NCBI GenBank assembly: GCA_034435275.1
Contig: DAOTXP010000014.1
Span: forward strand, 300-64,299
Direction: 5' to 3'
Length of the DNA stretch: 64,000 bases
From: Anaerolineales bacterium
Lineage (GTDB): Bacteria; Chloroflexota; Anaerolineae; Anaerolineales; Villigracilaceae
Shown: piece by piece, positions 15,699-50,935 of the stretch
Layout: each line of letters starts with the position of its first letter
Numbering within the stretch: position 1 is the first letter of the stretch
Notes under the pieces: model-generated
Seen by the model: the letters and a program-made list of their open reading frames with translations, nothing else
What the model was told of the DNA's origin: nothing
Databases searched by the model: none
Program-made: the position numbers and the translations under genes

Positions 15699-16032
15699 GA
15701 TTTCTCCAAATAGAAGCGGCAAGGATTATAACATCAGAGGAATCCATAAGTCGTTTGTACCTGGTCTTCGGACAAGAGTTCAGACAATTTCCCAAAATCT
15801 GCTCCGAGTACCGTCTCCAACGCTCGAAAACCAGCCTAATCGCCGCCGGGGACGGCGGCGAGAGCCCCGGTTTTTCTAGATGTCCGAAATAATGCCCGAA
15901 CTTCAGTTTGTACACGTTGACACAATATGACATTCGTCGTAACATTTTTGTGACAAATGAAACGTGTTTTCTGTACAACAACTCTTACAATAAAAGTAAT
16001 CGTTTACCAATTTCGTCAGGGTTTCTCCAGCC

Positions 16033-16491
16033 ATGATACGCATCAACCGACAAACCGATTATGCCATCCGAGTAGTACTCGCCCTCTCCAAGCGCGGACA
16101 GGGGGTGCGGGTTCCAACAGCGCAGATTCAGCAGGAGATGCTTATTCCGCCGGCGTTTTCACAGCGCATCGTGGCCGACTTGGCGCGGGGTCATTTCATT
16201 CTGACGTTCCCGGGCCGGGACGGGGGACTCTCGCTTGCCCATCCCCCACATGAGATTAACCTGCGGCAGATAGTGGAGTATTTCGAGGGGCCCTTGCTCG
16301 TTTCAGAATGTTTACTGCAAAAAGGAGATTGTCCGTTCGATACGAAATGCCCGGTGCGTTGCCGCTGGGGACGATTGCAATCGGTGATCCTGCACGAATT
16401 GGAAAGCATCACGTTTGATCAGCTGGCAGAAGAAGCCGGGGCGCTGGATACCGTACTCTCGGAGGGCAGTCCAGCCCGGCTCCCGATTTGA
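16033..16491 (+). CDS. Rrf2 family transcriptional regulator
   Basis: MIRINRQTDYAIRVVLALS..., the Rrf2 HTH. Also a Cys cluster (SECLLQKGDCPFDTKCPVRC) that could bind an Fe-S cluster. Sits directly upstream of cydAB. Confidence 0.85.
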   Translation: MIRINRQTDYAIRVVLALSKRGQGVRVPTAQIQQEMLIPPAFSQRIVADLARGHFILTFPGRDGGLSLAHPPHEINLRQIVEYFEGPLLVSECLLQKGDCPFDTKCPVRCRWGRLQSVILHELESITFDQLAEEAGALDTVLSEGSPARLPI

Positions 16492-16567
16492 GGCGAGGAG
16501 GAGTCATCTGACAAGACGATACACAATCCATTCTTCAACCAATAAACTTTTCAAAGGAGATTGATTT

Positions 16568-17956: not shown

Positions 17957-17970
17957 TACGGAGGCTCAAC

Positions 17971-19011: not shown

Positions 19012-19019
19012 GTTCGTTT

Positions 19020-19130
19020 GCACGTTTGAAGGTTTGAACGTTGGAAGGTTGACGGGGTATACTCGCTTCAACCTTCCAACCTTTTAACTTGCCAACCTTC
19101 GACCTTTAACTTTTGACCTTTGACTCAAAT
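19020..19130. repeat. Intergenic heptamer-periodic low-complexity tract with a 13-bp perfect inverted repeat
   Basis: gttggaaggttga (19040-19052) pairs with tcaaccttccaac (19068-19080). The flanks are units of the aaccttc/gaccttt type with 7-nt periodicity. Confidence 0.6.
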
Positions 19131-19133
19131 CTC

Positions 19134-29745: not shown

Positions 29746-29752
29746 GTCACAG

Positions 29753-29836
<84 letters not shown>

Positions 29837-30276: not shown

Positions 30277-30355
30277 CTCGAATTTTTCTACCGACCGTTC
30301 GGTAGGACTCTCGGATTTGAGATATAATACACAAAATACCGCGCGGAGCCGCCCC

Positions 30356-31564
30356 ATGGACCTCACCCTCTCCCCCGAACACCAAATGACGCAAAGGATG
30401 GTGCGCGACTTCGCTCAAAAAGAAATCACACCCGCCATCAAGGAACACGACCGCAGACAGGAACCCATTCCGTGGGTGCTTGCGCGCATGAGCGAACTTG
30501 GCATCCTCGGCATCTGCTTCCCCACCCGCTTCGGCGGCCAGGGCATGGACTACCTCTCCCTCGGCCTGGCCTGCGAGGAACTCGAAGCCGTGGACACCCA
30601 CCTGCGCGTGGTGATGTCGGTGCACACGGGTCTGTGCGCGATGACCATTTTTCAGTGGGGAACCGAAGAACAGAAGCAAAAATTCCTGATTCCCCTGGCA
30701 AGAGGCGAAAGGATCGGCTGTGGCGCGTTCACGGAATCAGGCATGGGGTCCGACGTGGCCGCGATGCGGACGTCCGCCAAACGCGACGGCGGACACTACA
30801 TCCTGAACGGCGAGAAGATGTGGATCTCCCTCGCCTCCAAAGCGGACCTGGCGCTGGTCACCGTTAAAACAAACCCCTCCGCCTCCAGGCCGTCCGAGGC
30901 ACTCTCCACCTTCATCGTGGACCTCGCCTCCCCCGGCGTGACGCGCGGCGACCTCCACGGCAAGCTTGGGGTCCGCGCGGGCTCGACGGGCTGGATCGCG
31001 TTTCAGGACACGAAAGTCCCTGCCGAGAATCGCATCGGCGAAGAGGGCGAAGGGTTCAAGATCACCATGTCCGCCTTCGACCATGGACGCTATACCGTGG
31101 CCTCAGGCGCGGCGGGAATCGTCCGCGCCTGTCTCGAAGCCAGTGTAAAATACGCAAAGACGCGCCAGACGTTCGGCAAGCCCATCGCGGAGCATCAACT
31201 CATTCAAGAGAAGATCGCCAAAATGTCGCAGGATTACGAGATCGCGCGATTGCTGTATTACCAGGTCGGCTGGATGAAGAACCAGGGCAGGCGCTGTACC
31301 CGCGAGACCTCGTTCGCGAAAAAGTTTGCTACCGAAGCGTCGTTTTCCGCCGCCAGCGAAGCCATCCAGATCCACGGCGCGTACGGCTACAGCGACGAAT
31401 ACGACGTGGAGCGTTACCTGCGAAACGCCCGAGGCGCCATGATCTACGAAGGCAGTTCCGAAATCCAGACCCTGATTCAGGCAGGCTACGCCCTCGGCGA
31501 GCGGACCGACAAGCCCCTGCATTGTGAACTCCCCGCCTATGACGAGGCGTTTTGGCAGGGATAG
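30356..31564 (+). CDS. Acyl-CoA dehydrogenase (short/medium-chain, Bcd-like)
   Basis: MDLTLSPEHQMTQRMVRDFAQKEI, FTESGMGSDVAAM and the C-terminal QIHGAYGYSDEYDVERYLRNARGAMIYEGSSEIQ. Followed by etfBA. Confidence 0.9.
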   Translation: MDLTLSPEHQMTQRMVRDFAQKEITPAIKEHDRRQEPIPWVLARMSELGILGICFPTRFGGQGMDYLSLGLACEELEAVDTHLRVVMSVHTGLCAMTIFQWGTEEQKQKFLIPLARGERIGCGAFTESGMGSDVAAMRTSAKRDGGHYILNGEKMWISLASKADLALVTVKTNPSASRPSEALSTFIVDLASPGVTRGDLHGKLGVRAGSTGWIAFQDTKVPAENRIGEEGEGFKITMSAFDHGRYTVASGAAGIVRACLEASVKYAKTRQTFGKPIAEHQLIQEKIAKMSQDYEIARLLYYQVGWMKNQGRRCTRETSFAKKFATEASFSAASEAIQIHGAYGYSDEYDVERYLRNARGAMIYEGSSEIQTLIQAGYALGERTDKPLHCELPAYDEAFWQG

Positions 31565-31575
31565 GAAGGTGAAAG

Positions 31576-31863
31576 ATGACGCAACCCTTTCACACCAAAA
31601 TTGACAAGACCATCCAGACTGCGGCGGGGCTGGTCGTGCTAGAGAATCCCGCTGGCTTTCCACGTTATGACTCAAACCTGTACTGCCTCGCCGCCAATGA
31701 ACGAATCGTCTGGAAAGCAGAAAAACCCGAACCGAACACGCTGTATCAGCGCGTGCGCATCAGCGACGACGGATTGAATCTCTCCGCGTACACCCTCAGC
31801 GGCCACGCCTGCGAGATTGACTTGAAAACAGGAAAACTCATCAGTTTCGTGGGCATGAAATAA
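31576..31863 (+). CDS. Hypothetical 95-aa protein between acd and etfB
   Basis: ORF with host-like composition and no recognised family. Confidence 0.45.
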   Translation: MTQPFHTKIDKTIQTAAGLVVLENPAGFPRYDSNLYCLAANERIVWKAEKPEPNTLYQRVRISDDGLNLSAYTLSGHACEIDLKTGKLISFVGMK

Positions 31864-31871
31864 TCCTTTCC

Positions 31872-31897
31872 GTCATTGCGAGCGACGAAGCAATGAC
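31872..31897. repeat. REP-like intergenic hairpin
   Basis: gtcattgc-gagcgacgaa-gcaatgac, a perfect 8-bp stem. Confidence 0.4.
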
Positions 31898-31931
31898 AGG
31901 GAAAACGCAAACGAATTTCACGGAGGTTCCA

Positions 31932-32702
31932 TTGAAAATCATCGCCTGCATCAAGCAAGTGCCCGACTCAGAAGCGAAGGTAAAAGCCGAGAACGGGCAA
32001 ATCACGTGGGGGGACGCGCCGCTGGTCATCAACCCGTTCGACGAGTACGCGGTCGAAGGCGCGCTCCAGCAGAAGGAGGCCCACGGCGGAACGGTCACCG
32101 CGCTGTGCATCGGGCCCGAGTCCGCCAGGGAGGCTCTCAAACACGCCCTCGCCATGGGCGCGGACGAGGCGATCCTCGTCTCGGACGCGGCTCTCGGCGC
32201 GCTCGATACGCTCGGCGCGGCGCGCGTGCTGGCCGCGGCCATCCAAAAGATCGGCGGCGCGGACATGGTCATGTTCGGCCGCCAGACCCTCGACGACGGC
32301 TCCGGCGTCACCGCCGCGCAGACAGCGCGCGTTCTCGGGTGGCCGATGCTCGGGCTGGTGGGCCAGATCAAAGTCGAGGGGGGAAGCGTGCAGGTCTCGC
32401 GCGTCATCGAGGAGGGGCGGCAGAACGTCAGCGCCAAACTGCCTGCCGTGCTCAGTCTCGTGCAGAGCATCGGCGAGCCGCGCTACCCGTCGTTCATGGG
32501 CATCCGCAAGGCCTCGAAAGCCGAAATCCCCGTCTGGTCGTTGGGCGATCTCGGCATCGGCGCGCCCGCGCCCATCGTGACCCGCGCCGAACTCATCACC
32601 CCGCCCAGCCGCGAAGTAACCTGCGAGATCATCACGGGCGAAAGCCCCGCCGAAATCGCGGACAAACTCGCCGACAAAATTCTCGCGGAGAAGGTGCTAT
32701 GA
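31932..32702 (+). CDS. etfB: Electron transfer flavoprotein beta subunit
   Basis: (L/M)KIIACIKQVPDSEAKVK is the canonical EtfB N-terminus. The TTG at 31932 lies 5 nt after ggagg. The ORF-track ATG at 31893 is an alternative start. Confidence 0.9.
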   Translation: MKIIACIKQVPDSEAKVKAENGQITWGDAPLVINPFDEYAVEGALQQKEAHGGTVTALCIGPESAREALKHALAMGADEAILVSDAALGALDTLGAARVLAAAIQKIGGADMVMFGRQTLDDGSGVTAAQTARVLGWPMLGLVGQIKVEGGSVQVSRVIEEGRQNVSAKLPAVLSLVQSIGEPRYPSFMGIRKASKAEIPVWSLGDLGIGAPAPIVTRAELITPPSREVTCEIITGESPAEIADKLADKILAEKVL

Positions 32703-33712
32703 AAACCTTTGTCTACATTGACCACTTCAAGGGCCAGGTCCAGCCTGCTTCGTGGGAGGCGCTCGGCGTCGCCAAAAGTTTCGGCGAGGCCAGCGCGGTC
32801 ATTTTTGGATCGGGACTCGACGCGCTGGTCAAGGCCGCGTTCGAATTCGGCGCGGACGAAGTGCTGGCCGCGGACGACGCCGCGCTGGCGGATTACCGCG
32901 CCGAGGCCTACGCCTCCACCCTGTCCGCGCTCGCCTCTGCCCGGACCCCCGACCTGATTCTGTTTCCGACAACGACTCGCACCCGCGAGATGGCCGCCAT
33001 GGCCGCCGTGGACCTGAACGCGGGCGTGCTGATTGACCTGACCGGTCTCGCGCTCGAGGGCGACAAACTGGTTGCAACGCGTCCGATCTACGAGGGCAAG
33101 TTGTACGAGAAGGCCGTTTGCTCGGGCAAGCCCGTCATTGCCACCCTGCGCGGACGCGCCTTCCCGCGCCCCGCACAGGATTCGTCGCGTTCAGGCTCTG
33201 CGACGAAGGTCGAGGCCAAGGCCGAGTCGCCTGTGACCGTCGAAGGCTACGACGTGGCCGAGCAGGCCGTCAGCGTGGCCGACGCGGGCGTGGTCGTCTC
33301 GGGCGGACGCGGCGTCTCGAACAATCCATCCCTCACGCCACCCGCCGGCATGGATGAAAAACAGGCCGAAGTCTGGCGCGCCCAGCAGGGCTTCGCGCTC
33401 ATCACCGACCTGGCAAACGTGCTGGGCGGCGCGGTCGGTGCCTCGCGCGCGGCCGTGGACGGCGGTTATATTCCATACTCGCATCAGGTTGGGCAGACGG
33501 GCAAGGTCATTACGCCCGACCTGTACATCGCCTGCGGCATCTCCGGCGCGATCCAGCACCTGGTCGGAATGAGAAACGCGAAATTGATCGTCGCCATCAA
33601 CAAGGATGCTGAGGCCCCGGTCTTCAAGCAGGCGCATTACGGCGTAGTCGGCGACCTGTTCCAGATCGTCCCCGCGTTGACGGAAGCGTTCAAGAAGAAG
33701 CTGGGGAAATAA
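32699..33712 (+). CDS. etfA: Electron transfer flavoprotein alpha subunit
   Basis: [12 protein letters not shown]... and the FAD-binding C-terminus [16 protein letters not shown]. The ATG overlaps the etfB stop (ATGA). The long ORF-track extension from 32006 is rejected. Confidence 0.9.
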
Positions 33713-34087: not shown

Positions 34088-35383
34088 ATGAAAAATCCCA
34101 ATCAACCCGTCCCCCAGCACTGGGCAGTTCGCTTCTTTACCATCTGGACCGGCCAGGCTTTTTCGTTGTTTGGCTCCGCGCTGGTGCAGTTTGCACTGGT
34201 CTGGTGGCTGACGCAGAAGACCGGCTCCGCCGTGGTCCTGACGACTGCCGCGCTGGTGGGCATGTTGCCGCAGGTGGTAATCGGTCCGTTTGCCGGCGCG
34301 CTCGTGGACCGCTGGAATCGCCGCGTCATCATGATGGCCGCGGACGCAACCATCGCGGCCTTTACCATTCTCCTGATCTGGCTGTTCGCCACAGGACAGA
34401 TTCAAATTTGGCATGTGTACGCCGTCATGACGGCCCGTTCATTGGGCGCCGCGTTCCACTTCCCCGCCATGTTCGCCTCGACTCCCCTGATGGTGCCCGA
34501 AAAGCACCTCACCCGCGTCAGCGGCCTGAATCAAACTCTGATGGGGTTGATGAACATGATCGCCCCGCCCATCGGTGCGCTCCTGCTCGAAGTGATGAGC
34601 ACGCAGGGCATCCTGATGATCGACGTGGTCACCGCCGCGCTTGCCATCCTGCCGCTGTTCTTCTTCTCCATCCCCCAGCCTGAACGCAGGGAATCCGAAG
34701 CGCATGGACGAAAACCCGGCCTGTTGGGCGACGTGCGTGCCGGCCTCGATTACATCCGCGGCTGGCCCGGGATAGTCGCTATCCTCAGCATGGCATTCTT
34801 TCTGAACTTCCTGCTCACGCCCGCAGGCGCGCTCACGCCTCTGCTCATCACCAAGCACTTTGGGAAGGGCGCACTCGAATTCGGATTAATGGATTCAGCC
34901 TGGGGTTTCGGCGTGATCGCCGGTGGACTGATCCTGGGTGCATGGGGCGGCTTCAAGAAAAAGGTTGCCACAGCGATGATGGGCATCATCGGCATTGGGA
35001 TGGGCGTTGTCGTGGTTGGCCTGGCTCCCTCCACCGCATTTGGCCTGGCGCTGGCGGGCATGGCCTTCGCGGGTGTGATGAACCCGATCACCGATGGCCC
35101 GCTCAACGCACTTCTGCAGACCATCGTCCGCCCGGACATGCAGGGCCGCGTCATGTCCCTCGTCGCCAGCGGCGCCACCGCCATGACCCCGCTTGGTCTG
35201 CTCATCGCAGGCCCCATCTCCGACGTGATCGGCATCCGCGCCTGGTATTGGATTGCAGGCCTCCTCACTCTGCTCATGGGCGCGGCGGGCTTTTTCATCC
35301 CCGCTGTCATGAACGTGGAAAACAATCACAATGGCCAGGTGGAAAGTCCTCCAACTCAGGTTTTGCAAACCTCGGCAGATTAA
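34088..35383 (+). CDS. MFS transporter (MFS_3 / EntS-like)
   Basis: About 12 TM segments. The N-terminus FFTIWTGQAFSLFGSALVQFALVWW and GALVDRWNRR are typical of this subfamily. Confidence 0.85.
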   Translation: MKNPNQPVPQHWAVRFFTIWTGQAFSLFGSALVQFALVWWLTQKTGSAVVLTTAALVGMLPQVVIGPFAGALVDRWNRRVIMMAADATIAAFTILLIWLFATGQIQIWHVYAVMTARSLGAAFHFPAMFASTPLMVPEKHLTRVSGLNQTLMGLMNMIAPPIGALLLEVMSTQGILMIDVVTAALAILPLFFFSIPQPERRESEAHGRKPGLLGDVRAGLDYIRGWPGIVAILSMAFFLNFLLTPAGALTPLLITKHFGKGALEFGLMDSAWGFGVIAGGLILGAWGGFKKKVATAMMGIIGIGMGVVVVGLAPSTAFGLALAGMAFAGVMNPITDGPLNALLQTIVRPDMQGRVMSLVASGATAMTPLGLLIAGPISDVIGIRAWYWIAGLLTLLMGAAGFFIPAVMNVENNHNGQVESPPTQVLQTSAD

Positions 35384-35401: not shown

Positions 35402-35431
35402 CAGGCCCGCGCCTTCCCGGACGCGGGCCTG
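35402..35431. terminator. Bidirectional hairpin between convergent genes
   Basis: caggcccgcg / cgcgggcctg, a perfect 10-bp stem. Confidence 0.6.
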
Positions 35432-35447: not shown

Positions 35448-36833
35448 TTAATCGTCCCCTCCGCCGCCCTCGTCATCGGGATTATTGCTGTCATGACAGG
35501 CAGTGCAGGTCGCCGAATACAAATTGACCGTGTGACAATCGCGGCACGACGCGCCGCCATGATTGACGCCGCGGCCGCCCTCATCTGCGATGCCTGGATG
35601 CGAGCCGTAATAAGGCGCATACCAGTTGCTGGTGGTGTGACAGGTCTCGCAATCCGTCCCGAACATGCCCGCGTGGAACGGCGGGTCGGCATGACAGGAA
35701 ACACACGCGGCGGACAACCCCGCGAACTGGCCTGCGGCATGGCATCGTTCGCAAGTCACGCTGGCATGTGCGCCCGTCAACGGGAAGTTACTCAGGTTGT
35801 GGTCAAAGGCGGCATTCGCCCAATCGGTGGGAGTGTGACAAGCGCCGCAGTCTGTGCCAAAGCGCCCGTTATGCTCGTCATCCTGGCGGTGGCAGGCATA
35901 ACAGTCTGCCGGCGTATCTTTGTACTGTCCGTTGGCGTGGCACCCTTCGCAGGCGACCTCCATATGTTCGCCCTCGAGTTTGAAAGCGGACAGGTTGTGG
36001 TCGAATGTGGCATTTTCCCAGTCGGACGGGTTGTGGCACGCCGCGCAATCCACACCGAAGCGACCGTTGTGTTCGTCGTCCTGGCGGTGGCAGGAATAAC
36101 AGCCGGTGGGCGCGGATTTCAAATCAGCCAGTGAGCGCGCGTCGAGGTGGCATTTGGTACAGATCACTTCGGCGTGCTTTCCCTCCAACGCAAAACCGAC
36201 GCGGCTATGATCGAAATGCACGCCGTAGGTGTCAATGCCGTCATGGCAGGCAAGACAATCACCGCCCCAGCCAAGCAGGTGGGCGGTGGTAAAGGCTACG
36301 TCAATCTGGCGGTGACAGTCGGCGCACACGGCCTGATCGAAGAGAGCCATATCCTGCGCATGGCAATCGGAGCAGGCAAACGGCGCGCGGTCGGGCTTGC
36401 GCACATGCGCGGCCAGCGAATAGCCAAGCGCCTCGTGCGGGAAGTTTCCATTCTTGACAAGAGTCAGCGGCGCGTCGGGGCCGCGATGCTCGGGGTGACA
36501 TTGGGCGCAACCCAGGTTCGGGGTCTGAATTTGAATCGCCCCGTGCAGGGAGGCGGGATCGGATTGCTGGGCTGCCACGTCCGCGTGGCAGGCTATGCAG
36601 CGGTCGTCCATCCGTTCGGAAAAATTCCACGGCGCGGGGTGGCAGGCGGCGCATTCCTGGATGTCCGCATGGGAGGCCGCGCCGCCCAGCATCGGACCGG
36701 ACTGGGAGTTCAAATCGCCCGCGCTGAACATGCTCCCGCCGCTGGCAAAGGAGACCCCGACGATCACAAACAATGTCAGGAGCGCCGAAAAAATGGCTGT
36801 GGCAGAAAAACATCCGAGTCGACTGTTTCGCAT
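35448..36833 (-). CDS. Secreted or membrane-anchored multiheme cytochrome c with 17 CXXCH motifs
   Basis: I counted 17 CXXCH motifs in the translation. The N-terminus has a hydrophobic signal or anchor. There are repeated paired-CXXCH modules and an acidic Gly/Asp tail. Confidence 0.9.
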   Translation of the reverse strand: MRNSRLGCFSATAIFSALLTLFVIVGVSFASGGSMFSAGDLNSQSGPMLGGAASHADIQECAACHPAPWNFSERMDDRCIACHADVAAQQSDPASLHGAIQIQTPNLGCAQCHPEHRGPDAPLTLVKNGNFPHEALGYSLAAHVRKPDRAPFACSDCHAQDMALFDQAVCADCHRQIDVAFTTAHLLGWGGDCLACHDGIDTYGVHFDHSRVGFALEGKHAEVICTKCHLDARSLADLKSAPTGCYSCHRQDDEHNGRFGVDCAACHNPSDWENATFDHNLSAFKLEGEHMEVACEGCHANGQYKDTPADCYACHRQDDEHNGRFGTDCGACHTPTDWANAAFDHNLSNFPLTGAHASVTCERCHAAGQFAGLSAACVSCHADPPFHAGMFGTDCETCHTTSNWYAPYYGSHPGIADEGGRGVNHGGASCRDCHTVNLYSATCTACHDSNNPDDEGGGGDD

Positions 36834-36844
36834 GTTCCCACCTC

Positions 36845-37396
36845 CTATCGCCCAAAAGTGACGTAATACAACGCCGCGCCGATGTGAACGAAGGCCGCTG
36901 CGAACAGCGCCATGCCCAGCGGGATGTGTACAGTGTGCCAGAGTGCCATCAAACGGCGTGCCTGCCTGAGGGCCTCCTGCGGGAGCGTGCCTTCGATCTC
37001 GAGTCCGTCAACAGTGCGCGGGATGCGCGTAAAAATATAGCGGCCGACAAAACCGCTGATCACGATGATGACCGTGAACAGTGTGGTCACCCCGGCCAGC
37101 CCATTGAACTTCCAGGAAGTGTGCAAGAGCACCATGTACGGCCCGACCAGTCCGGTGAAGATGTGAAATTCCAGCCAGGACGACATGCGCCCCCAGCGCG
37201 CACTGCGGCTGCGCTTGCGCAGGCTGTAGAGTGTCTCGGTCATCAGCATCAGGAGGAAGCCGAAGATTCCCAGGCTGTGACCGAAAAAATCACCTGCCGA
37301 GGGAATCCCGCGCGTGAGGATGACAACCCCTGCATAGACTCCCGTAATGAAGATGGCGGCGACGAACGCCAGCCATAATTCCTTGCCTCTCAGCAT
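36845..37396 (-). CDS. Five-TM His-rich membrane protein (possible b-type heme carrier, ferric-reductase-TM/DUF4405-like)
   Basis: Five hydrophobic helices. His residues sit in or near the helices: FGHSL, EFHIF, VLLHTS, WHTVHIP and FVHIG. Confidence 0.55.
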   Translation of the reverse strand: MLRGKELWLAFVAAIFITGVYAGVVILTRGIPSAGDFFGHSLGIFGFLLMLMTETLYSLRKRSRSARWGRMSSWLEFHIFTGLVGPYMVLLHTSWKFNGLAGVTTLFTVIIVISGFVGRYIFTRIPRTVDGLEIEGTLPQEALRQARRLMALWHTVHIPLGMALFAAAFVHIGAALYYVTFGR

Positions 37397-37420
37397 CGCA
37401 ACCTCTCACTAGTATAATTT

Positions 37421-38737
37421 TCAGGCCCGCGCTACCCACCCGCGCCAAAAGTCGGCGAGCAAGTCTGCAATCGGCGCATCGGGCGCGAGTAGTTTTTCGC
37501 GCACCGCGGAAATGTCAGCGCCGCCCGCGATCATCTTCTGCAGGGGTATCGAGAGCGTCTGATCGCCCATGACGACCGCGCCCAGCAGGGACTTCTCGCC
37601 GACGATCAAACGCAGGCGATTGACCTCGAAACCGGTCTGCGCAACAATGGCGTTCGGCAATTGACGCCAGGTCTCGCTGTCGCCGCGGGCAATGCTGACC
37701 AGGTCGTCGTCGCGGCCGCGGCCGACTGTGCCAATGATCGTGGTCGTCAGCCCCGCCAGCCGCGTGACATTGAACGGCACGCCCTTGACGTAGGCCTGCT
37801 TCCGCCCGCACATGTTGAGTCCCGCCGCCCAACCCTGTTCCCGCGCCGGCCCCCAAAGGCTATCCAGGATCGACCTGCCCGAAAGCGGATCGTAGACCTG
37901 CGCCACGTCGCCTGCCGCGAAAATGTCAGGATCGTTCGTCTGCAAATATTCATTAACAAGAACGCCGCGATCCACCGCCAGGCCGGCTCCCTTCGCCAAT
38001 GCCACGCGCGGTTGGATGCCGATGGCATAAGCCAACAGGTCACAATGCAGGGTGCGCCCGTCCAGCAAACGGACACCCGCCACGCGCCCGCGCTTGCCGA
38101 GCACTTCCACCACCTCGGCGTGATGAATCAGTTCCACACCCTCCTCGCACAGACGATGTTCCACGATCTGCGATTCGCTTGCGTCCAGCACATTGCTCCA
38201 GTAACGGCCGCCGCGCAAAAGGTATTGCACTCTGACCCGATGCGCGATCAGGCCCTCGACCAGTTCCAGCGCGGTGATTCCGCCTCCCACCACCGCCGCA
38301 CGGCGGGAACGCTGCGCCAGCATCTCGATTCGACGGGCATCCGCCATGTGATCCAGTTTGACTACGCCCTCCAAGTCTGCACCGGGCACGGTCAACGGAA
38401 CGGCCGAGGCGCCCACCGCCATCAACAGGCGGTCATAGGCCAGGCGATTCTTTTCATCGATCTCCAACTGCCGTTCTTCACGAAGAATCCTGGTCACGCG
38501 TCCCTTCACGTAACGGATCTTCAGCCTCTGGAAATCCTCGGTTGTGAACGGATACAACTGCTTCTCCCCTGCTTCGCCGGTCAAATAATAGGCCAGACCG
38601 GGGCGCGAGTAATATCCGAAGGGATCGTCACTCACCAGAATGATCTCGGCCTCAGCGGGAGAGGGGTGAACCGAGCGAATGGCCTCGATGGCGGCAATCC
38701 CCGCCACGCCGCTGCCGAGGATGACGAAGCGGCTCAT
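37421..38737 (-). CDS. FAD-dependent pyridine nucleotide-disulfide-family oxidoreductase
   Basis: Two Rossmann motifs (ILGSGVAGIAA and VVGGGITALE) and the GD motif (IFAAGDVA). Confidence 0.85.
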   Translation of the reverse strand: MSRFVILGSGVAGIAAIEAIRSVHPSPAEAEIILVSDDPFGYYSRPGLAYYLTGEAGEKQLYPFTTEDFQRLKIRYVKGRVTRILREERQLEIDEKNRLAYDRLLMAVGASAVPLTVPGADLEGVVKLDHMADARRIEMLAQRSRRAAVVGGGITALELVEGLIAHRVRVQYLLRGGRYWSNVLDASESQIVEHRLCEEGVELIHHAEVVEVLGKRGRVAGVRLLDGRTLHCDLLAYAIGIQPRVALAKGAGLAVDRGVLVNEYLQTNDPDIFAAGDVAQVYDPLSGRSILDSLWGPAREQGWAAGLNMCGRKQAYVKGVPFNVTRLAGLTTTIIGTVGRGRDDDLVSIARGDSETWRQLPNAIVAQTGFEVNRLRLIVGEKSLLGAVVMGDQTLSIPLQKMIAGGADISAVREKLLAPDAPIADLLADFWRGWVARA

Positions 38738-39000
38738 TTAACGGCCTCCGCGAACAGGTCGGTGCGCTCGAAACGCAGCACCCCGCGCGGACAGCGCGCC
38801 ACGCACTCACCGCATGTCAAACAGCGGCTGTTATGGATCGGCTCTCCAAGCCAAGCATGGCGGCGCACGTCAATATTGATCGGGCAATTAAAGGAACAAA
38901 TCCCGCATTGCACACAGCGCGCGGGGTCGGGCGTCACCTGACCGCCAATCGAGGCGGCATGGCGGGCGGCCTCGCTGCGAAATAAACTCTTAATGGACAT
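38734..39000 (-). CDS. 2x[4Fe-4S] ferredoxin-domain protein
   Basis: CVQCGICSFNCP and CLTCGECVARCP. The stop overlaps the next start (ATGA). Confidence 0.8.
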   Translation of the reverse strand: MSIKSLFRSEAARHAASIGGQVTPDPARCVQCGICSFNCPINIDVRRHAWLGEPIHNSRCLTCGECVARCPRGVLRFERTDLFAEAVK

Positions 39001-39090: not shown

Positions 39091-39124
39091 AAATAAAAAC
39101 AGGGTTGCATTTCTGCAACCCTGT
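39091..39124 (-). terminator. Rho-independent terminator after cspA
   Basis: The minus strand reads acagggttgca-gaaa-tgcaaccctgt followed by ttttatttatt. Confidence 0.65.
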
Positions 39125-39155
39125 CGTTCGCAAAACTCTGCCCGAGGCCTGGGTC

Positions 39156-39368
39156 TTACGAAATCAGGACGACGTTGGCGGCCTGCAAACCCTTCGGCCC
39201 TTCTTCGACCGAAAACTCGACCTTCTGATCGGCCTCCAGTTTGCGGTAGCCATCCATCTGCAGCGCGGTGTAGTGGACGAAAACGTCCTCACCATCTTCG
39301 CGGCCGATGAAGCCGTAGCCCTTCGTGGCGTTGAACCACTTGACGGTGCCAGTGAATCGTTCAGACAT
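39156..39368 (-). CDS. cspA: Cold-shock protein (CspA family)
   Basis: [36 protein letters not shown] contains the RNP1/RNP2 motifs. The ATG at 39368 follows ggagaaag. Confidence 0.92.
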
Positions 39369-39475
39369 ACTTCTTTCTCCTACTGAGAATAAAAATGTCC
39401 CGCTCGCCACGTACGCTTTCTACGGACGAACGGGCTTGACGACGGGGGCGAGGGTATCACGCCTCACCGGGCATG

Positions 39476-40147
39476 TCAAGACCGATTTTTCATTTCCTTC
39501 AAAATGGACGCATATCGCGAGGTCAAATGGAACCAGGGCGGTGACCCGCGCGTCTTCGCGATTCCCCGGCGGATGACCGCCCGCAGCCCGTCCGGACCCT
39601 CGAACGGAGGCAGCGTTAAAGTGGAGCGTCCCAGCTCGAACGCCGCGTGCGCGTCCGACCCGACCGTGATCGGAATCCCGTGTTCCCGCGCGAACTCCAT
39701 CGCCCGCGCGTTGAAGCGCGGCAGCATACAGCGCGAATTGAAGCCCTCGATGGCATCCACGAGAGGCAGGATTTCGAGCAAATCATCCAGCCGCCAGCCG
39801 CCCTGCCGCCACTCGTCGAACGGATGCGAAACGCTGATGAACGCGCCCTGTCCGCGCAATCGGCGAATGGTCTCTTGAGAGGACAGCCCTGCGGGAATCT
39901 CCTCCGTTACGAACGCGGCCAGGATTTCCCCGCGCGTCGTCATGATCTCCTCTCCCACAATGACGCGCTCGGGGTCCAGCGCCTGCGCCGCCTGAGCGCC
40001 TGCAATTGTGTTGTGATCGGTCACCACCACGCGGTCAATTCCCCCGTGGCGGCAGGCCGCGACGAGGGCATCTGGCGAGGTGAGCGAGTCCTTGGAGGCG
40101 GAGGTGTGGGTGTGGAATTCGACGCGAAAATAATGACGAATGTCCAT
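39476..40147 (-). CDS. PHP (polymerase/histidinol-phosphatase-like) domain metal-dependent phosphoesterase
   Basis: VEFHTHTSASKDS, VVVTDHNTIAGA, ISVSHPF and VGSDAHAA are PHP metal-ligand motifs. Confidence 0.75.
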   Translation of the reverse strand: MDIRHYFRVEFHTHTSASKDSLTSPDALVAACRHGGIDRVVVTDHNTIAGAQAAQALDPERVIVGEEIMTTRGEILAAFVTEEIPAGLSSQETIRRLRGQGAFISVSHPFDEWRQGGWRLDDLLEILPLVDAIEGFNSRCMLPRFNARAMEFAREHGIPITVGSDAHAAFELGRSTLTLPPFEGPDGLRAVIRRGIAKTRGSPPWFHLTSRYASILKEMKNRS

Positions 40148-40268
40148 ATCACCATCGTGTTTACACGAAGTATAATTGCTTGACAAACGAAATCGCCAAA
40201 GTATATACTAAATCCGCTTCGACGAACAGTTCTGGGACGAAAAGGTAACTAAAGGGTCGGTTGTTTTT

Positions 40269-41858
40269 ATGGAAGCGATTGGCGAGATCATTTTCCGGCT
40301 GAATACATTTCTTGACAATTCGTTGCCATGGATGGCAGGCATTGCCCTATCCATCTTCAACGCCTACATGTTCATCAAGTGGATTTGGGATAAAACAAAG
40401 GACCAACAGGCACAGGTATCCACATCGATTCAGGTATCAAGGGCTTTTTACTTGTTAGGCATATCGCTCGGTATTCAGGCATTCGTTATCGCCGCATTAT
40501 ACTATTCGCCAGTGTGGGCGCGATGGTTGGAGATCTTCGGAGCAGCATGTGTCTACATTTATTTTCTCACTCGCAAAGAAAGCGACGCGAGGGGTCTGCA
40601 CACAACCGCCGGGCATCTTTCAATCATCTTCCTCGGCTGGTGGCTTGGGAGTTGGCTGGGCATCATTTTCATTTCAGTGCCAATCTTCGTTGCTTTTTAT
40701 TATTGGCTATATCGGATTGCCTTAGCAATTGTCCCTGCATCCGATCCAGAGAGTTCGACTGAAGCCCTGGCGAGATTCAAAATGCTGGCTTGGTATATGT
40801 GGGGGTTACAATTCCCAGTTTGGGTGGCAAAAGATGATCTGGAACGCGTTGCGGAGGAAAGGATCAAAGGGGACTTGACCAAATCTCTTGGTCAGCCGGG
40901 TATGATCTGGGTCCATTCCAATCAGGCAATCGGTATCACGCGCAGCATCCAGTTTTCACGCGTAGAGGGCCCGGGCATAATATTCACGAAGACTTACGAG
41001 CGCCCCTATCAAGTTATGGATCTGAGAACGCAGATTCGTACAGCCGAGGTACAAGCCATCTCGAAAGATGGGATTCCATACAAAGCAATAGTCCTGATTG
41101 TATTCAACCTGGATAAAGATGCATGGACAGAGGATCAGTACAAAACACTCCGCTTAAAAAATTCGCTGTTGCGGGGCGCCCAATCGCTAGACCGAATCTC
41201 CGGAAGTTATAAGTATTCTCGTTCACGCGTCACTGCAGCCCTAAGCATCGAAGGCATCAAGCATACGAGCGTCGAAGGGGAAGCCCGACCGGTTGTCCAC
41301 TGGGATCACTGGGTGGTCAACACGGTCGCGGAGGCGGCGCGCAACGAGTTGTCGCATCGTCCACTGGATGAATTATGGCGAGCAGCCAACGATGGAAAAG
41401 ATGCAAATGCATCGAACATCATTGCAAACAATATCAAGTCGGCGGTTGCAGGCAGACTCAAGGAAAATGGCATCAACCTCATCGCCGCCCGCATCGTCAA
41501 CTTCAATTTTGAAGACAAGGAGGCCAGTAAAGTTTTACAACAGCAGATCGATACTTGGGAATCTCTACGGAACCAGGAAATTGCGAAAACAAGGACCGAA
41601 GCCGCAGCGACATCGGTTCAAATCAGGCAGGACGCATTTGCCTACGCGCGTTCCAAGCTCCTCTCGTCCATCGCCCAGGGAGTGGAGCAAATGATGGAGA
41701 AACACAAGAACCTTCCAACCAAGTATGTGGTTGCTGTCAGATATCTCACCGCCATCGAAGATTGGATAAGCCAACAGGAAGGGGAGGGCGGAACAAAGAT
41801 ACAGGCCCTCCGCTCGAGGCTTAAGGATTTGAACTTCCCTCAAAGTGGGCAGGTTTAA
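40269..41858 (+). CDS. Multi-TM SPFH (band-7/stomatin-prohibitin) domain protein A
   Basis: Several N-terminal TM helices (about aa 20-165). SPFH core GPGIIFTKTYERPYQVMDLRTQIRTAEVQAISKDGIPYKAIVLIVFNLD. Later segment NGINLIAARIVNFNF. C-terminal charged coiled coil. Confidence 0.75.
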   Translation: MEAIGEIIFRLNTFLDNSLPWMAGIALSIFNAYMFIKWIWDKTKDQQAQVSTSIQVSRAFYLLGISLGIQAFVIAALYYSPVWARWLEIFGAACVYIYFLTRKESDARGLHTTAGHLSIIFLGWWLGSWLGIIFISVPIFVAFYYWLYRIALAIVPASDPESSTEALARFKMLAWYMWGLQFPVWVAKDDLERVAEERIKGDLTKSLGQPGMIWVHSNQAIGITRSIQFSRVEGPGIIFTKTYERPYQVMDLRTQIRTAEVQAISKDGIPYKAIVLIVFNLDKDAWTEDQYKTLRLKNSLLRGAQSLDRISGSYKYSRSRVTAALSIEGIKHTSVEGEARPVVHWDHWVVNTVAEAARNELSHRPLDELWRAANDGKDANASNIIANNIKSAVAGRLKENGINLIAARIVNFNFEDKEASKVLQQQIDTWESLRNQEIAKTRTEAAATSVQIRQDAFAYARSKLLSSIAQGVEQMMEKHKNLPTKYVVAVRYLTAIEDWISQQEGEGGTKIQALRSRLKDLNFPQSGQV

Positions 41859-41861
41859 ACC

Positions 41862-43262
41862 ATGGATCATCCGTCCGAGAAATGGCAAACCCTTTACACC
41901 AGCGAACAGGCGCGCTGGCAGGATGCCCGCCAGATTTTAACGACCCTCTTGCCGTTAATTGCCTTGGCTCTGGCGAGTGTGGTTTCGGCACTCGTGTTTG
42001 TCTCTTCGGATTCGAACCGTTTTATCAATTCATCCAGCACAATCGCCGGGACACTTTCAGCAGGCCTCATGATCCTTATTGTGGTGTTTCCACTAATAGT
42101 GGGTATCGTCGGCATAATTCTGATCTTTCGTATGGCGCACAAATGGTTCAAAGATGCTTATCAGCCGCCAAAGAGTACTAACACGAGGCCCTTAATCCTT
42201 CGTAGGCTCTTTGGTTACCCACCCCTCCCCCCACCATTGGACACCATGATCAAGTATCCATTTGTCATAATCAAAGATGGGGCGTTATTGAAAGACGAAC
42301 AGGCCTGGGTCAAATGGTTGGGCGGTCCAACTTCTTTGGTTATCTCAGATGGGAATGCAGTTTATGTGGAACGTGGTAACCGCTTTTCAAGAGTAATCGG
42401 TCCGGGGTTGGCCTTCCTGGAAAAACACGAAGCAATAAAAGAAATCGTCGACCTTCGGCCACGAGTGCTTACCCGTAAAATAGAGGCATGGACGAAGGAT
42501 GGCATCAAAGTCGAATTTCAAACACTGATCAAATTCCGCATCGGTGCAGTTCAGGGAACAGTGTTCCCACAGGACTTGCCTGATATCGCATCCGGGAAAG
42601 ACGCGAGGACCGCTGGTGAAAATCTACCTCTGTTCCCCTGCGATCCTATCTGTGTAAAAAAGGCAGTGGAATGGGGCAAAGTCGGAAGAGAATTCGTGGA
42701 CGGAAAAGAGAAACTGGCTTTATTGAAGTGGCCGGAGGGTGTATGGGGTAAAGTGCAGGGCAGGCTTGCCAATTATGTATCTACACATCATCTCGATGAA
42801 CTTTTCGTGGCGTCAAAAAACAGTCCGTCGGGGCAAATGCTCTCCAGCCGTGAGCGTGAAATCCTGAGAGCAAGACTTGATCAGGACTTAATGGACGAGG
42901 CTGGGATAACACTGATTGATCTTCAAATAACTGATTTCAAACTTGATCCGAATATCAATGTAAAGCGGGTCGAAAAGTGGACATCGGAATGGAAAGCAAA
43001 AGAGGAAATTCGCAGCGCGAAGGCAGACGCGGAAAAGACCAAGGCAGTGGAAACCGCCCGAGCCGAAGCCCAGCGCGATTTGATTCTACAAATCGCGGAT
43101 GGATTAAGCGTTGCCAATGAAAAGACATTTGCAGATGCCGTTCTCCTCTCCCTTTCAGGTATTCTCGAACAAAGCCTCGGCGATCCTTATGCGCCTGCAT
43201 ATCTTGCTCACGAGACCCTGGAAACCCTTGAAAAAATCCAGGAATTACTCAAGAAACCGTAG
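41862..43262 (+). CDS. Multi-TM SPFH domain protein B (paralog of A)
   Basis: N-terminal TM helices. SPFH core GPGLAFLEKHEAIKEIVDLRPRVLTRKIEAWTKDGIKVEFQTLIKFRIGA. Later segment AGITLIDLQITDFKL. Coiled coil AKEEIRSAKADAEKTKAVETARAEAQRD. Starts 3 nt after A. Confidence 0.7.
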   Translation: MDHPSEKWQTLYTSEQARWQDARQILTTLLPLIALALASVVSALVFVSSDSNRFINSSSTIAGTLSAGLMILIVVFPLIVGIVGIILIFRMAHKWFKDAYQPPKSTNTRPLILRRLFGYPPLPPPLDTMIKYPFVIIKDGALLKDEQAWVKWLGGPTSLVISDGNAVYVERGNRFSRVIGPGLAFLEKHEAIKEIVDLRPRVLTRKIEAWTKDGIKVEFQTLIKFRIGAVQGTVFPQDLPDIASGKDARTAGENLPLFPCDPICVKKAVEWGKVGREFVDGKEKLALLKWPEGVWGKVQGRLANYVSTHHLDELFVASKNSPSGQMLSSREREILRARLDQDLMDEAGITLIDLQITDFKLDPNINVKRVEKWTSEWKAKEEIRSAKADAEKTKAVETARAEAQRDLILQIADGLSVANEKTFADAVLLSLSGILEQSLGDPYAPAYLAHETLETLEKIQELLKKP

Positions 43263-43280
43263 TCCTTTACGGGGAGCCAA

Positions 43281-44348
43281 ATGAATAAAACCTTCGCATA
43301 CATCCTGAACAAGCTCGAGATCAACGACAACATCATTGCGGACCTACGTCATCGTACCATCAGCGTGAGCAGCCTGGAGCAGGCCAGTACAGTTCTCGCG
43401 GAAATTAAGTTCCGCATCGACCTGTGTCTAGAGACTCGTTGTAAAGAGGATAAACCATATTACTTCATGTTTCACGCTTACTGTAATTTATATACAGACA
43501 AGAGAGAGGAAGCAGTCAACGCAACCACGTATGCCATTGACGATTTCCGCGTCTGCGGTCTCTCTTGGAACGAGGTGGTTGGACATTGGTTCCTAGGTTC
43601 GATTTATGCAACTGAAAGCAGGGGTTACCTGTACCTTGCCGAATTGAACTTGGCGCTGGATATCGCGAACCCGCTCTATCAGGAGCTCATAATTCAGGGT
43701 GAATATGAACAAGCCGCAAAATACCAGAAAGTAATTTCAAAGTTAGAAAGCCAAAAACAGACTGCGACAAAAATGGGCACGGGGCCGCTTCGGATGCCGA
43801 CGGAGTCGCTCAAATTCACAGACGATCTTCCCTCAATGGGCTCGGAAGATTATCTGGTCCTGCCCTGGCTCCCCAGCTACAATGCTGTAAAAGCAACACC
43901 AAACGGATTGATCTGGGATCGTCCGGTAAAGGAAATCAGGTCCTCCATCCGCAACATGGAGATCAACAGCAGTCGCTATACGATATATTCACTGCAAAGA
44001 CAGTCGCCCACCGACCATCAGGTGACTTTGGTCGAGCATGAACAATATGGCTGGGCAAAGGTGGAAGGAAAAAGCATGAATGCGTCCCTTCCGACCTCAA
44101 TAAATGAGGGAGACCAAATCCTTTTTCACATCAACATCAAGCCTCGCGATGGGGACATTGTGGTTGCATCAGAACTAATGGCTTCCGGCAACTATGCTTA
44201 TATGGTCAAGAGATACCGCGCCTTGGGCAATGAACTGGTATCGGAGACTAATGACAAGGACCCCGGCCAATCTTACGATCCAATAAAATTGGATGGTCAT
44301 CACCAAATCCTGGGCATCGTCATTGCTGTAGCCAAGCCTGCTAGATAA
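43281..44348 (+). CDS. Helical-repeat N-domain fused to an S24 (LexA/CI/UmuD-type) Ser-Lys peptidase domain
   Basis: The C-terminal part contains WAKVEGKSMNAS, EGDQILF, DGDIVVA, YMVKRY and HQILGIVIAVAK. These follow the GxSM...GD(i)VvA...vKR...G.V layout of S24 peptidases. No HTH is evident in the N-terminal part. Confidence 0.7.
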   Translation: MNKTFAYILNKLEINDNIIADLRHRTISVSSLEQASTVLAEIKFRIDLCLETRCKEDKPYYFMFHAYCNLYTDKREEAVNATTYAIDDFRVCGLSWNEVVGHWFLGSIYATESRGYLYLAELNLALDIANPLYQELIIQGEYEQAAKYQKVISKLESQKQTATKMGTGPLRMPTESLKFTDDLPSMGSEDYLVLPWLPSYNAVKATPNGLIWDRPVKEIRSSIRNMEINSSRYTIYSLQRQSPTDHQVTLVEHEQYGWAKVEGKSMNASLPTSINEGDQILFHINIKPRDGDIVVASELMASGNYAYMVKRYRALGNELVSETNDKDPGQSYDPIKLDGHHQILGIVIAVAKPAR

Positions 44349-50100: not shown

Positions 50101-50935
50101 GCGGCGTGTTCGATGGAGTCGAGGTCAGGGTCGCAGTGGGACTCGGCGTGCGGGTGAGAGTCGGACTGGGGGTGAAGGTCGCGGTCGGCGGATTGCCGGT
50201 CAGAGTGAAGCGTCCGCTGGCCTCCCATAGGGAGCCGACATAAATCTGTACTTCGTACTCACCTGCCAGCCACTCATCCGGCGGCAACTCGCAATCGGAA
50301 AAGCCATAGCCGCTCGGCAGGCCGTCCCAGGGTTTGGTTTCGAGGCACTTGCCGAGCAGCTGGCCGTTCTGATACCATAGCGCGGTCCACTGCACGCCGG
50401 GGGTCATATGGCTGACTGTGAAAACTGCAAACATGCGCTTGATGGGATTGCGCCAGGTGGTGCTGGGATTGACTGGCAGGGCGAATTCCATTTCGGTGGA
50501 AAATTTGAGTTCGCCGATCTGGACCTGCGGGTCCGGTGTGATCGTGCTGGAGGAAAGCGCCTCGATGGCCGGAGGCAGAACGGGGACAGGGGTATAAGTC
50601 GGTTCGGGTGTGAGGAAAAACGTGGGTGGCAGCGGCGTCGGAGTCATCCATGCCGTCTGGGTTGCAGTGGGAGGACGCGTGGAGGTTGGCGCGGGCGGCG
50701 TCGCCCGTGCGGTGAGAGATTCGCCATAGCGATACGCCAAAAAGCCCAGAACGAAAATCAAAAGGGAGACCCCGATGAATCGCCACCCGACGGTCACGCG
50801 CTGTTGGCGCTGACGGAAAAACGTCAGGCGGCGGCCGGACGAGATGGCGCGCAGTCCCGCGACGAACAGACCCAGCGCGACCGCCGCCAGCAGGAAGACA
50901 ACGACCCATATCCAGAGTTGAATATTCACCAGCAA
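47114..50935 (-). CDS. 1273-aa multidomain surface protein
   Basis: Single uninterrupted ORF. In order it contains the following:
- a TM anchor
- a shared unknown domain
- a PT region
- a GerMN-like domain (about 49170-49545: [18 protein letters not shown]..., [15 protein letters not shown])
- a PT tandem-repeat region
- an NBR1-like Ig domain (47663-47995: [27 protein letters not shown])
- a C-terminal unknown domain. Confidence 0.8.
48017..49135 (-). repeat. Coding tandem repeats (about 51-53-aa Pro/Thr-Arg units, with a 468-bp higher-order repeat)
   Basis: The plus-strand word tccgcgtcggacgcggtgtttcggtcgggatcggcgtccgcgtggctgtgtt recurs near 48232, 48385 and 48543. The segment starting gcgtgaaggtcagtgacggc at 48301 recurs at 48769, an offset of 468 bp. 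Confidence 0.85.

Follow-up and report, generated by a model that had tools for sequence, protein, structure and literature searches.

The stretch of DNA analysed here, hereafter the window, comprises 64,000 nt of contig DAOTXP010000014.1 (assembly GCA_034435275.1) of an Anaerolineales bacterium of the phylum Chloroflexota, and matches the Chloroflexota metagenome-assembled genome (MAG) GCA_964455885.1. Between positions 35448 and 39000 it carries, on the minus strand, a cassette of four genes encoding a ferredoxin of 88 aa (38734-39000), a flavoprotein of 438 aa (37421-38737), a five-helix membrane protein of 183 aa (36845-37396), and a multiheme cytochrome c of 461 aa (35448-36833). All four were taken from the list of open reading frames (ORFs), and all coordinates given below for parts of the cassette and its bounding hairpins refer to the minus strand. 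The stop codon of the ferredoxin gene and the start codon of the flavoprotein gene overlap as ATGA, the flavoprotein and membrane protein genes are separated by 24 nt, and the membrane protein and cytochrome genes by 11 nt. Shine-Dalgarno boxes GAGAGG and GGAGGTG are situated approximately 6 nt upstream of the start codons of the third and the fourth gene, respectively. At the 5' boundary a terminator-like hairpin with a 12-bp stem followed by a T-run (39098-39125) belongs to the 3' end of the upstream cspA-like gene; at the 3' boundary a second terminator-like hairpin (35402-35431; 12-bp stem, 10 GC pairs) is located 17 nt past the stop codon of the cytochrome gene. The four genes look like a single self-contained transcript, and the long plus-strand ORFs that overlap them are the usual by-product of 60% G+C. 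A first-pass annotation, made from the sequence alone, had already described four tightly linked minus-strand genes between two terminator hairpins and had named them as a ferredoxin, a flavin adenine dinucleotide (FAD) flavoprotein, a five-helix His-bearing protein, and a cytochrome with 17 CXXCH motifs. Gene coordinates, ATGA overlap, and both gaps were reproduced, the hairpins were found again with the earlier coordinates off by a few bases at most, and the gene identities were recovered by Pfam matches, motif counts, and an AlphaFold2 model.

The ferredoxin matches the Fer4 dicluster family of Pfam and contains two complete CxxCxxCxxxCP motifs, CVQCGICSFNCP at 38881-38916 and CLTCGECVARCP at 38788-38823, and thus the binding sites of 2x[4Fe-4S]. 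Its eight Cys residues and a GIDVR loop are kept across phyla, and its best relatives in the PDB are the polyferredoxin modules FwdF/MvhB and RnfB. Because the ferredoxin contains neither a signal nor a Tat motif, it is placed in the cytoplasm. A sequence scan of ferredoxin and flavoprotein revealed neither an export signal nor a hydrophobic segment other than the Rossmann strands, and Tat- or Sec-dependent export of the two proteins was rejected on these grounds.

The flavoprotein is a Pyr_redox_2 protein according to Pfam (E 7e-49) with two Rossmann folds and the GxGxxG-type dinucleotide-binding motifs LGSGVA and VGGGIT at residues 7-12 and 150-155, respectively. No redox-active Cys pair was found in it, and neither a CxxxxC motif nor an active-site Cys is conserved among its relatives; due to the lack of this pair, a role as disulfide reductase or NADH peroxidase was rejected. 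With both GxGxxG motifs and no disulfide, the protein is of the two-dinucleotide-binding type represented by PdR, BphA4, AorC, PadH, and the N-terminal part of NirB. Among NCBIfam models, it matches best to the N-terminal FAD/NAD part of NirB and to PadH (E 1e-51), in both cases far under the equivalog cut-off and hence without assignment to an exact subfamily, and its best PDB match is 8c0z_E (E 1e-37). This chain is AorC, which as FAD subunit connects NAD with the polyferredoxin chain of AorA (PMC10413684). AorC/AorA of the Aromatoleum AOR and PadH/PadF of phenylglyoxylate dehydrogenase are the nearest characterised relatives, and the exchange of electrons between NAD(H) and [4Fe-4S] chains in these systems (PMC10413684) is what is proposed for the cassette as well. 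The coupling of NAD(H) to iron-sulfur subunits by AorC, and by PadH with the ferredoxin subunit PadF, supports the assignment of flavoprotein and ferredoxin as a joint donor module. A difference lies in the end point, since the AorC and PadH modules serve soluble catalytic subunits, whereas the iron-sulfur chain of the cassette is proposed to end on a membrane heme. The conserved sequence LRGxRYW, which follows the second Rossmann strand, is devoid of the usual acidic residue and gives a weak hint of a preference for NADPH.

In the AlphaFold2 model, the membrane protein consists of five helices (predicted local distance difference test, pLDDT, of 90). Its His residues are located at positions 40, 78, 92, 154, 157, and 171, and their conservation was counted in an alignment of 114 representatives at 50% identity. 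H78 (37163-37165) and H92 (37121-37123) on helix 3 are kept in 111/111 and 112/113 sequences, H157 (36926-36928) and H171 (36884-36886) on helix 5 in 84/93 and 85/91, and H40 and H154 in 79/103 and 54/98, respectively. Judged from a truncated member, most of the sequences that miss H157 or H171 are probably fragments. Both pairs, H78/H92 and H157/H171, show the spacing HX13H, which is that of the di-heme core of cytochrome b, and lie at matching depths by the membrane faces. Six Lys/Arg residues occur in the loop of residues 58-71, five in the loop of residues 123-152, and one in every other loop; according to the positive-inside rule, the N-terminus and the two Lys/Arg-rich loops are therefore cytoplasmic. 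Given this topology, H78 and H157 are situated approximately 5-7 residues inside the cytoplasmic face and are proposed as ligands of a cytoplasmic-side heme, and H92 and H171 are situated by the outer face and are proposed as ligands of an outer heme. This 2+2 arrangement of conserved His residues corresponds to the classic transmembrane di-heme b pattern, and the protein would accordingly bind two hemes b. Near-invariant residues other than His are found on the cytoplasmic face (Y57, R60, K61, S114, G115, G118, R119, Y120, P126, and R127), and this conservation fits a docking site. Taken together, we read the protein as a putative wire of two hemes across the membrane, with a conserved docking surface on its cytoplasmic side.

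Against PF01292 (Ni_hydr_CYTB / prokaryotic cytochrome b561), the membrane protein reaches 29.2 bits at a gathering cut-off of 30.1. Among 25 diverse relatives, matches to PF01292 were obtained for 20 (E<=1, best E 8e-8), to Ferric_reduct for 8, and to DUF4405 for 7, all of them weak, and precomputed PF01292 matches are listed for some homologues. The window protein itself has no match to Ferric_reduct (PF01794) at E<=1, the best value among its relatives being E 0.002. We take the three families to belong to one Pfam clan of di-heme cytochromes. No NCBIfam model covers the protein, sequence and profile searches against PDB chains yielded nothing relevant, and a Foldseek comparison of the model to the PDB gave no match at E<=0.001, the only weak ones being cytochrome b561 (4o6y), DUOX1, and FdnI. 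Alignments of the family profile by hhalign to E. coli FdnI (E 0.24) and MsrQ (E 0.14) are non-significant and, with His pairs in register, count as hints only. In case of FdnI, whose heme ligands we presume from the Fdh-N structure to be H18, H57, H155, and H169 on three helices, the register is restricted to the HX13H of helix 5 and H155/H169, and the His residues are distributed 2+2 on two helices in the membrane protein compared to a presumed 1+1+2 on three in FdnI. Membership in either the NOX/FRD or the FdnI/HydC group is not established by these comparisons. The family is large, with 5144 clusters at 90% identity and, at 50% identity, 2563 representatives at E<=0.001, of which 1031 reach E<=1e-10. 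An apparent fusion of membrane protein and cytochrome (P0206) was rejected as a Rosetta-stone case, since its helix 5 is replaced by an out-of-frame-looking sequence, and it is regarded as a frameshift artefact.

The cytochrome contains 17 CXXCH motifs, and because 34 of its 35 Cys residues fall in them, a chance origin of these motifs is excluded. Beyond the motifs 18 His residues are present, enough for bis-His ligation throughout. Six stretches match Cytochrome_C7 / c3 of Pfam (E 1e-22), with further matches to Cytochrom_c3_2 and Cytochrom_CIII, and the NCBIfam match to HmcA is weak (E 2.8e-6, 26 bits compared to a cut-off of 400). The sole hydrophobic segment is an N-terminal anchor or signal at residues 9-27 (36753-36809). 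Due to this single N-terminal anchor and to the attachment of c-type hemes outside the cytoplasm, the cytochrome is considered extracytoplasmic. The anchor is followed by six hemes, three triheme repeats, two C-terminal hemes, and an acidic tail; the c7-like repeats are of 66 aa each and occupy residues 201-402 (35628-36233). From approximately residue 30 onward, starting at a conserved anchor-proximal motif (MFSPGxL...GGxxSHAE...CxxCH), the protein is collinear with the cytochromes of distant cassettes. Full-length cassette cytochromes carry 9-47 hemes, truncated ORFs having been counted down to 5 motifs. In the Anaerolineales set described below, the first cytochrome has 14-38 heme motifs and a second one, which is present in many loci, 17-47; in distant relatives the range is 9-18. 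Giant cytochromes with 38-47 CXXCH motifs adjoin some Anaerolineales cassettes (loci L056, 8431-11898; L007, 899-4111; L051, 7962-11090; L057, 6563-9301). The spread of heme numbers among close relatives apparently arose by gain and loss of triheme modules, and a variable triheme count on a constant membrane-proximal part would fit a wire whose length can be adjusted. The poly-c7 cytochromes of Geobacter (GSU1996 type) are likewise built of c7-like triheme modules in tandem, with bis-His hemes, but unlike these the window cytochrome is probably membrane-anchored and is genetically tied to a putative b-type cytochrome. Its single-sequence AlphaFold2 model (pLDDT 33.8) was too poor for structure comparison.

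In a scan of GTDB species genomes with the membrane protein 447 relatives were identified, the best 80 of which were inspected for synteny. Nearly all of these 80 carry the label Anaerolineales, Anaerolineae, or Chloroflexota, with Ca. Villigracilis and Brevefilum among them, and related MAGs originate from sediments, aquifers, digesters, and activated sludge. Ferredoxin and flavoprotein genes were observed upstream of the membrane protein gene in all testable loci of this Anaerolineales set (72/72), and a multiheme cytochrome gene was observed downstream in all testable loci as well (74/74). In L078 approximately 760 nt lie between the flavoprotein and membrane protein genes. With a median identity of 79% among the 80 species, the membrane protein is the most conserved of the four; ferredoxin and flavoprotein reach 68% each, the cytochrome only 54%. 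The genes immediately upstream of the cassette in the window (39156-40186) encode a cspA-like cold-shock protein and a PHP-domain protein, and since they keep this position in most of the 80 loci, synteny reaches past the four genes.

The cassette is also present in 10/10 distant relatives (approximately 30-50% identity), which include a Gemmatimonadota MAG, Gemmataceae, and metagenomes. A long form of the membrane protein, characterised by a cytoplasmic insert between helices 4 and 5, was inspected in 80 metagenome loci, and in the testable ones ferredoxin, flavoprotein, and cytochrome genes were found in 34/34, 38/40, and 39/44 cases, respectively. Start and stop codons of cassette genes overlap in several lineages, and among the ten distant relatives overlaps of coding regions are frequent. 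A permuted order (fdx-tm-cytochrome-fad) occurs in L098 (3412-7595) and L101 (2447-7677), where the flavoprotein gene comes last and the cytochrome has 39 hemes, or 24+15 distributed over two ORFs. In the Gemmataceae loci L091 (5130-8206) and L090 (5018-8074) a GYF_2 domain is fused N-terminally to ferredoxin and membrane protein alike, in some loci of this type with a zinc-ribbon-like CxxC pair; its presence on both proteins fits the N-in topology and a common cytoplasmic location. In case of L090 the ferredoxin frame looks damaged and the cytochrome gene is located on the opposite strand. Ferredoxin, flavoprotein, membrane protein, and cytochrome are each orthologous between lineages, and all four genes are co-inherited across phyla. 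No published description of the cassette was found in a literature coverage that leaves most subscription journals outside, so an earlier description is possible. We regard the cassette as a real, widespread, and apparently uncharacterised four-gene unit within the known class of transmembrane redox conduits.

Based on gene content and sequence features, the four proteins would assemble into a single membrane complex, in which electrons travel from NAD(P)H in the cytoplasm to the outer 17-heme cytochrome, a reading to which we assign a probability of roughly 0.6. The FAD flavoprotein would oxidise NAD(P)H in the cytoplasm and pass single electrons through both [4Fe-4S] clusters of the ferredoxin to the cytoplasmic-side heme b of the five-helix protein (H78/H157). 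From there they would cross the bilayer to the outer heme b (H92/H171) and enter the membrane-anchored 17-heme bis-His cytochrome c at the outer face, which would deliver them to an external or periplasmic acceptor. As in NOX, such a transfer would be both electrogenic and dissipative, the outward flow being driven by the membrane potential and consuming it; a cell that lives largely by fermentation or heterotrophy would gain the re-oxidation of its NAD(P)H. We infer complex formation, outward direction, the lack of an obligatory quinone step, and the final acceptor. Anaerolineales are thought to be devoid of an outer membrane (PMC7399161), so that their wire could extend across the cell wall, whereas carriers with two membranes would have it in the periplasm.

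This layout shares its logic with several known systems. In NOX, FRE, and FRD proteins, as proposed for the cassette, electrons pass from cytoplasmic NAD(P)H via a flavin and stacked heme(s) b across the membrane to an outside acceptor. In FRD proteins, which have six transmembrane helices, two bis-His motifs located on two of these hold one heme by each face (PMC12525009). The membrane protein of the cassette comes close to their placement of His pairs on two helices of a four-helix core (PMC12525009), but has five helices and shows HX13H in both pairs. The flavin reductase is a separate polypeptide in MsrQ-Fre as well (PMC12525009; PMC5676040). The parts differ, however: the reductase of the cassette is a Pyr_redox_2 flavoprotein with a dicluster ferredoxin, whereas NOX uses an FNR-like domain and MsrQ uses Fre, and the proposed acceptor is a tethered multiheme cytochrome c instead of the O2, Fe(III), or MsrP of NOX, FRE, and MsrQ. 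The first-pass annotation had proposed a NOX/FRE-like conduit split into separate polypeptides, and this proposal is supported for the architecture (donor module, di-heme b, outer cytochrome). Homology to NOX/FRE is not supported, due to the Pyr_redox_2 nature of the flavoprotein and to the profile comparison of the membrane protein, in which PF01292 at its sub-threshold 29.2 bits scores better than the likewise sub-threshold Ferric_reduct and than DUF4405. The annotation had further made its reading conditional on conserved bis-His ligands, a cytochrome outside the cytoplasm, and co-location of the genes elsewhere. All three were borne out, by the alignment for H78/H92 and H157/H171, by the one N-terminal anchor together with the c-type motifs, and by hundreds of genomes across phyla. 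A restriction to monoderms or to truly extracellular transfer is not supported, since diderm phyla carry this cassette as well and would have the cytochrome in the periplasm.

The Hmc and Tmc complexes of Desulfovibrio resemble the cassette in that a multiheme c3-family cytochrome, a membrane cytochrome b, and a cytoplasmic iron-sulfur protein are encoded together. Their subunits include the 16-heme HmcA, an HdrD-like CCG protein, and NrfD-like and periplasmic iron-sulfur subunits. Both complexes move electrons across the membrane (PMC10920352). The window cytochrome corresponds to their periplasmic c3-family multiheme cytochrome, though it is not an HmcA equivalog. In the iron-sulfur protein of the cassette, the 88-aa dicluster ferredoxin, no CCG domain was matched by Pfam or NCBIfam, so that it does not correspond to the HdrD-like subunit; NrfD-like and periplasmic iron-sulfur subunits are missing from the cassette too, and its carriers, unlike the hosts of Hmc/Tmc, are not sulfate reducers. 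Geobacter CbcL and CbcBA, treated in a survey of quinol oxidases in extracellular electron transfer, likewise pair a di-heme b module in the membrane with an outer-face multiheme cytochrome c (PMC6295460), but they are quinol oxidases without a dedicated cytoplasmic donor, whereas flavoprotein and ferredoxin are obligatory partners in the cassette. The Ndh2-DMK-EetAB-PplA route of Listeria and the Rnf-linked MmcA/DhcA routes also export electrons of NADH or ferredoxin to an extracytoplasmic carrier, but none of the proteins involved is the same. In Listeria a quinone and flavinylated PplA are required, and Rnf is an ion pump. The idea of an Rnf-cytochrome connection is mentioned in PMC10920352. 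The cassette is best read as following the logic of NOX/FRE and of Hmc/Tmc with members of different families.

Four explanations compete with an outward conduit from NAD(P)H to the cytochrome and its use in respiration-like extracellular transfer. That the genes are mere neighbours with unrelated functions has a negligible probability. Every component family is indeed common and individually unspecific, but even at 30-50% identity the genes are co-located in Chloroflexota, Gemmatimonadota, Planctomycetota, and unassigned metagenome lineages, their coding regions overlap, the permuted variant holds all four genes, and all four are orthologous between lineages, so that chance adjacency is effectively refuted by the synteny data. 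A coupling to quinones deserves more attention, although we consider it unlikely. In this case b-type and multiheme cytochrome would constitute a menaquinol:cytochrome c oxidoreductase of the CbcL/CbcBA type, and flavoprotein and ferredoxin would feed or regulate it via a quinone site, so that an NAD(P)H:quinone reductase would be joined to a quinol:cytochrome branch in place of a direct wire from heme to heme. PF01292, the FdnI/HydC/CybB family, whose members react with quinones, gives the best Pfam score for the membrane protein and for the 20/25 diverse relatives, and the HX13H on helix 5 of the membrane protein aligns, at the non-significant E 0.24, with the presumed heme ligands H155/H169 of FdnI. 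A cytochrome bd quinol oxidase is encoded in the window, and CbcL of Geobacter is itself a HydC/FdnI-like di-heme b protein fused to a 9-heme c domain (PMC6295460). The known CbcL/CbcBA enzymes, however, need no cytoplasmic partner, whereas flavoprotein and ferredoxin genes occur here at essentially every locus, are translationally coupled, and are kept even in the permuted variant. Moreover, conservation peaks on the cytoplasmic face and not in a recognisable quinone pocket, and the 2+2 His residues on two helices are unlike those of FdnI.

A reversal of the flow, from a low-potential periplasmic or extracellular donor via the cytochrome and the b hemes to ferredoxin and NAD(P)+, appears less probable still. 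It would be analogous to Hmc/Tmc, which import periplasmic electrons (PMC10920352) and whose layout of c3-type cytochrome, cytochrome b, and cytoplasmic iron-sulfur protein is mirrored by the cassette. The weak HmcA match of the cytochrome (E 2.8e-6) points in the same direction, as does the use of NAD as electron acceptor by the related AorABC (PMC10413684). Inward transfer would nevertheless oppose the membrane potential and run uphill to NAD(P)+ for most environmental donors, and in none of the inspected loci was a gene for a periplasmic hydrogenase or formate dehydrogenase linked to the cassette. Members of the Anaerolineales, Gemmataceae, and Gemmatimonadota are known as organoheterotrophs, which also speaks against it. 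With the outward mechanism retained, the purpose might be a different one, namely the supply of periplasmic or surface enzymes or of metal ions, with cytochrome c peroxidase, NO reductase, or Fe(III) for uptake as in eukaryotic FRE as candidate acceptors. In L083 (8811-10388) genes for a di-heme cytochrome c peroxidase (CCP_MauG) and a Haem_bd protein directly follow that of a 12-heme cytochrome, with a two-component system upstream, and the acceptor in this lineage may be a periplasmic peroxidase. A DHOR di-haem peroxidase-like gene in L091, a NorC/COX1-like pair in L087, genes for an extracytoplasmic function (ECF) sigma factor and FecR in L090, an Nramp gene in another distant locus, and the MFS_3 transporter gene that adjoins the cassette in the window and in approximately one third of the Anaerolineales loci add to this view. 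Gemmataceae are known as aerobes, in which dissimilatory metal reduction would be less obvious. These neighbours vary by locus, however, and none is conserved across lineages; cytochromes with 17-47 hemes are far longer than required to reach a periplasmic enzyme, and Anaerolineales rich in such cytochromes have been reported from bioanode communities (PMC7399161). We consider such a different purpose improbable, to about the same degree as a quinone-coupled enzyme.

Several observations weigh against the outward conduit itself. The direction of flow is not fixed by sequence, and the membrane protein can be assigned to a family only weakly. The nearest Pfam family comprises quinone-reactive cytochromes b, and with cytochrome bd encoded in the window a quinone step is possible. 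Furthermore, 5/44 testable long-form loci are without an adjacent cytochrome gene and have unrelated neighbours. In L110 (1933-2748) the membrane protein gene stands alone between DinB_2 and CBS genes, and in L114, L116, and L123 (approximately 29-3621), which form a small low-GC clade, flavoprotein and membrane protein genes are followed by genes for a sigma-70-family factor and a DUF5666 protein, without a cytochrome gene. As these four loci indicate, genes of the b-cytochrome family can occur without a multiheme cytochrome gene next to them. A more far-reaching version of the outward conduit can be put forward only tentatively, and we hold it to be somewhat more doubtful than probable: the cassette would be a hitherto unrecognised, quinone-independent, four-subunit NAD(P)H:multiheme-cytochrome oxidoreductase, a modular bacterial counterpart of eukaryotic NOX/FRE assembled from unrelated parts, and would supply the missing cytoplasmic-membrane step of extracellular electron transfer in Anaerolineae, with a wire tuned between 9 and 47 hemes by gain and loss of triheme units.

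Apart from the cassette, further redox-related genes are found in the window. A region at 14664-22811 contains genes for the heme A synthase CtaA (14664-15722, minus strand), an Rrf2 regulator (16033-16491), cydA (16568-17956), and cydB (17971-19011), as well as for a fused ABC transporter of 1232 aa with two ABC_membrane and two ABC_tran domains, which may be CydDC-like. Because of cydA and cydB the organism is considered to possess a quinol oxidase, and a quinone pool is probable. On the strand opposite to the cassette, an acyl-CoA dehydrogenase gene is followed by genes for the beta and alpha subunits of an electron-transfer flavoprotein (30317-33712), another NADH/ferredoxin-related redox module. 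The MFS_3 transporter gene (34088-35383) is convergent to the cassette and may hint at a link to iron acquisition; we take MFS_3 to be the family of the enterobactin exporter EntS. On the other side, a stretch of low GC (40269-44348; 0.48-0.50 compared to approximately 0.60) encodes two paralogues of 529 and 466 aa, both of which match Band_7/SPFH weakly, and a third protein, of 355 aa, that ends in an S24 peptidase domain. A PADLOC search of these low-GC genes gave no match to a defence system, and they also flank the cassette on the matching MAG contig L001. The only Pfam match of a minus-strand ORF of 1273 aa (47114-50935) is the Ig-like domain N_BRCA1_IG, and the GC skew reaches +0.31 at 48-50 kb. 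A sulfotransferase and two FGE-sulfatase (SUMF1-like) proteins are encoded at 11897-13081, 55576-57309, and 60738-62351, and the only tRNA gene of the window is that of tRNA-Leu (CAG) at 29752-29836 on the minus strand.

Anaerolineales genomes encode large multiheme cytochromes with variable heme numbers, and members of the order have been reported from bioanode communities (PMC7399161). A proposed route from metabolism to the cytochromes of Anaerolineae was not found in the searchable literature, and the cassette offers a concrete four-gene candidate for such a route, which adjoins the cytochromes directly in all Anaerolineales genomes that were inspected. If the transfer is quinone-independent, electrons of NAD(P)H would be disposed of outside the cell with the respiratory chain bypassed, which would have consequences for the balance of fermentations, for interspecies electron transfer, and for metal cycling. 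If true, the system would represent convergent evolution with NOX/FRE and a compact module for the engineering of electron export. The carriers among Planctomycetota and Gemmatimonadota suggest a general link between NAD(P)H and periplasmic cytochromes and not a trait of a single lineage.

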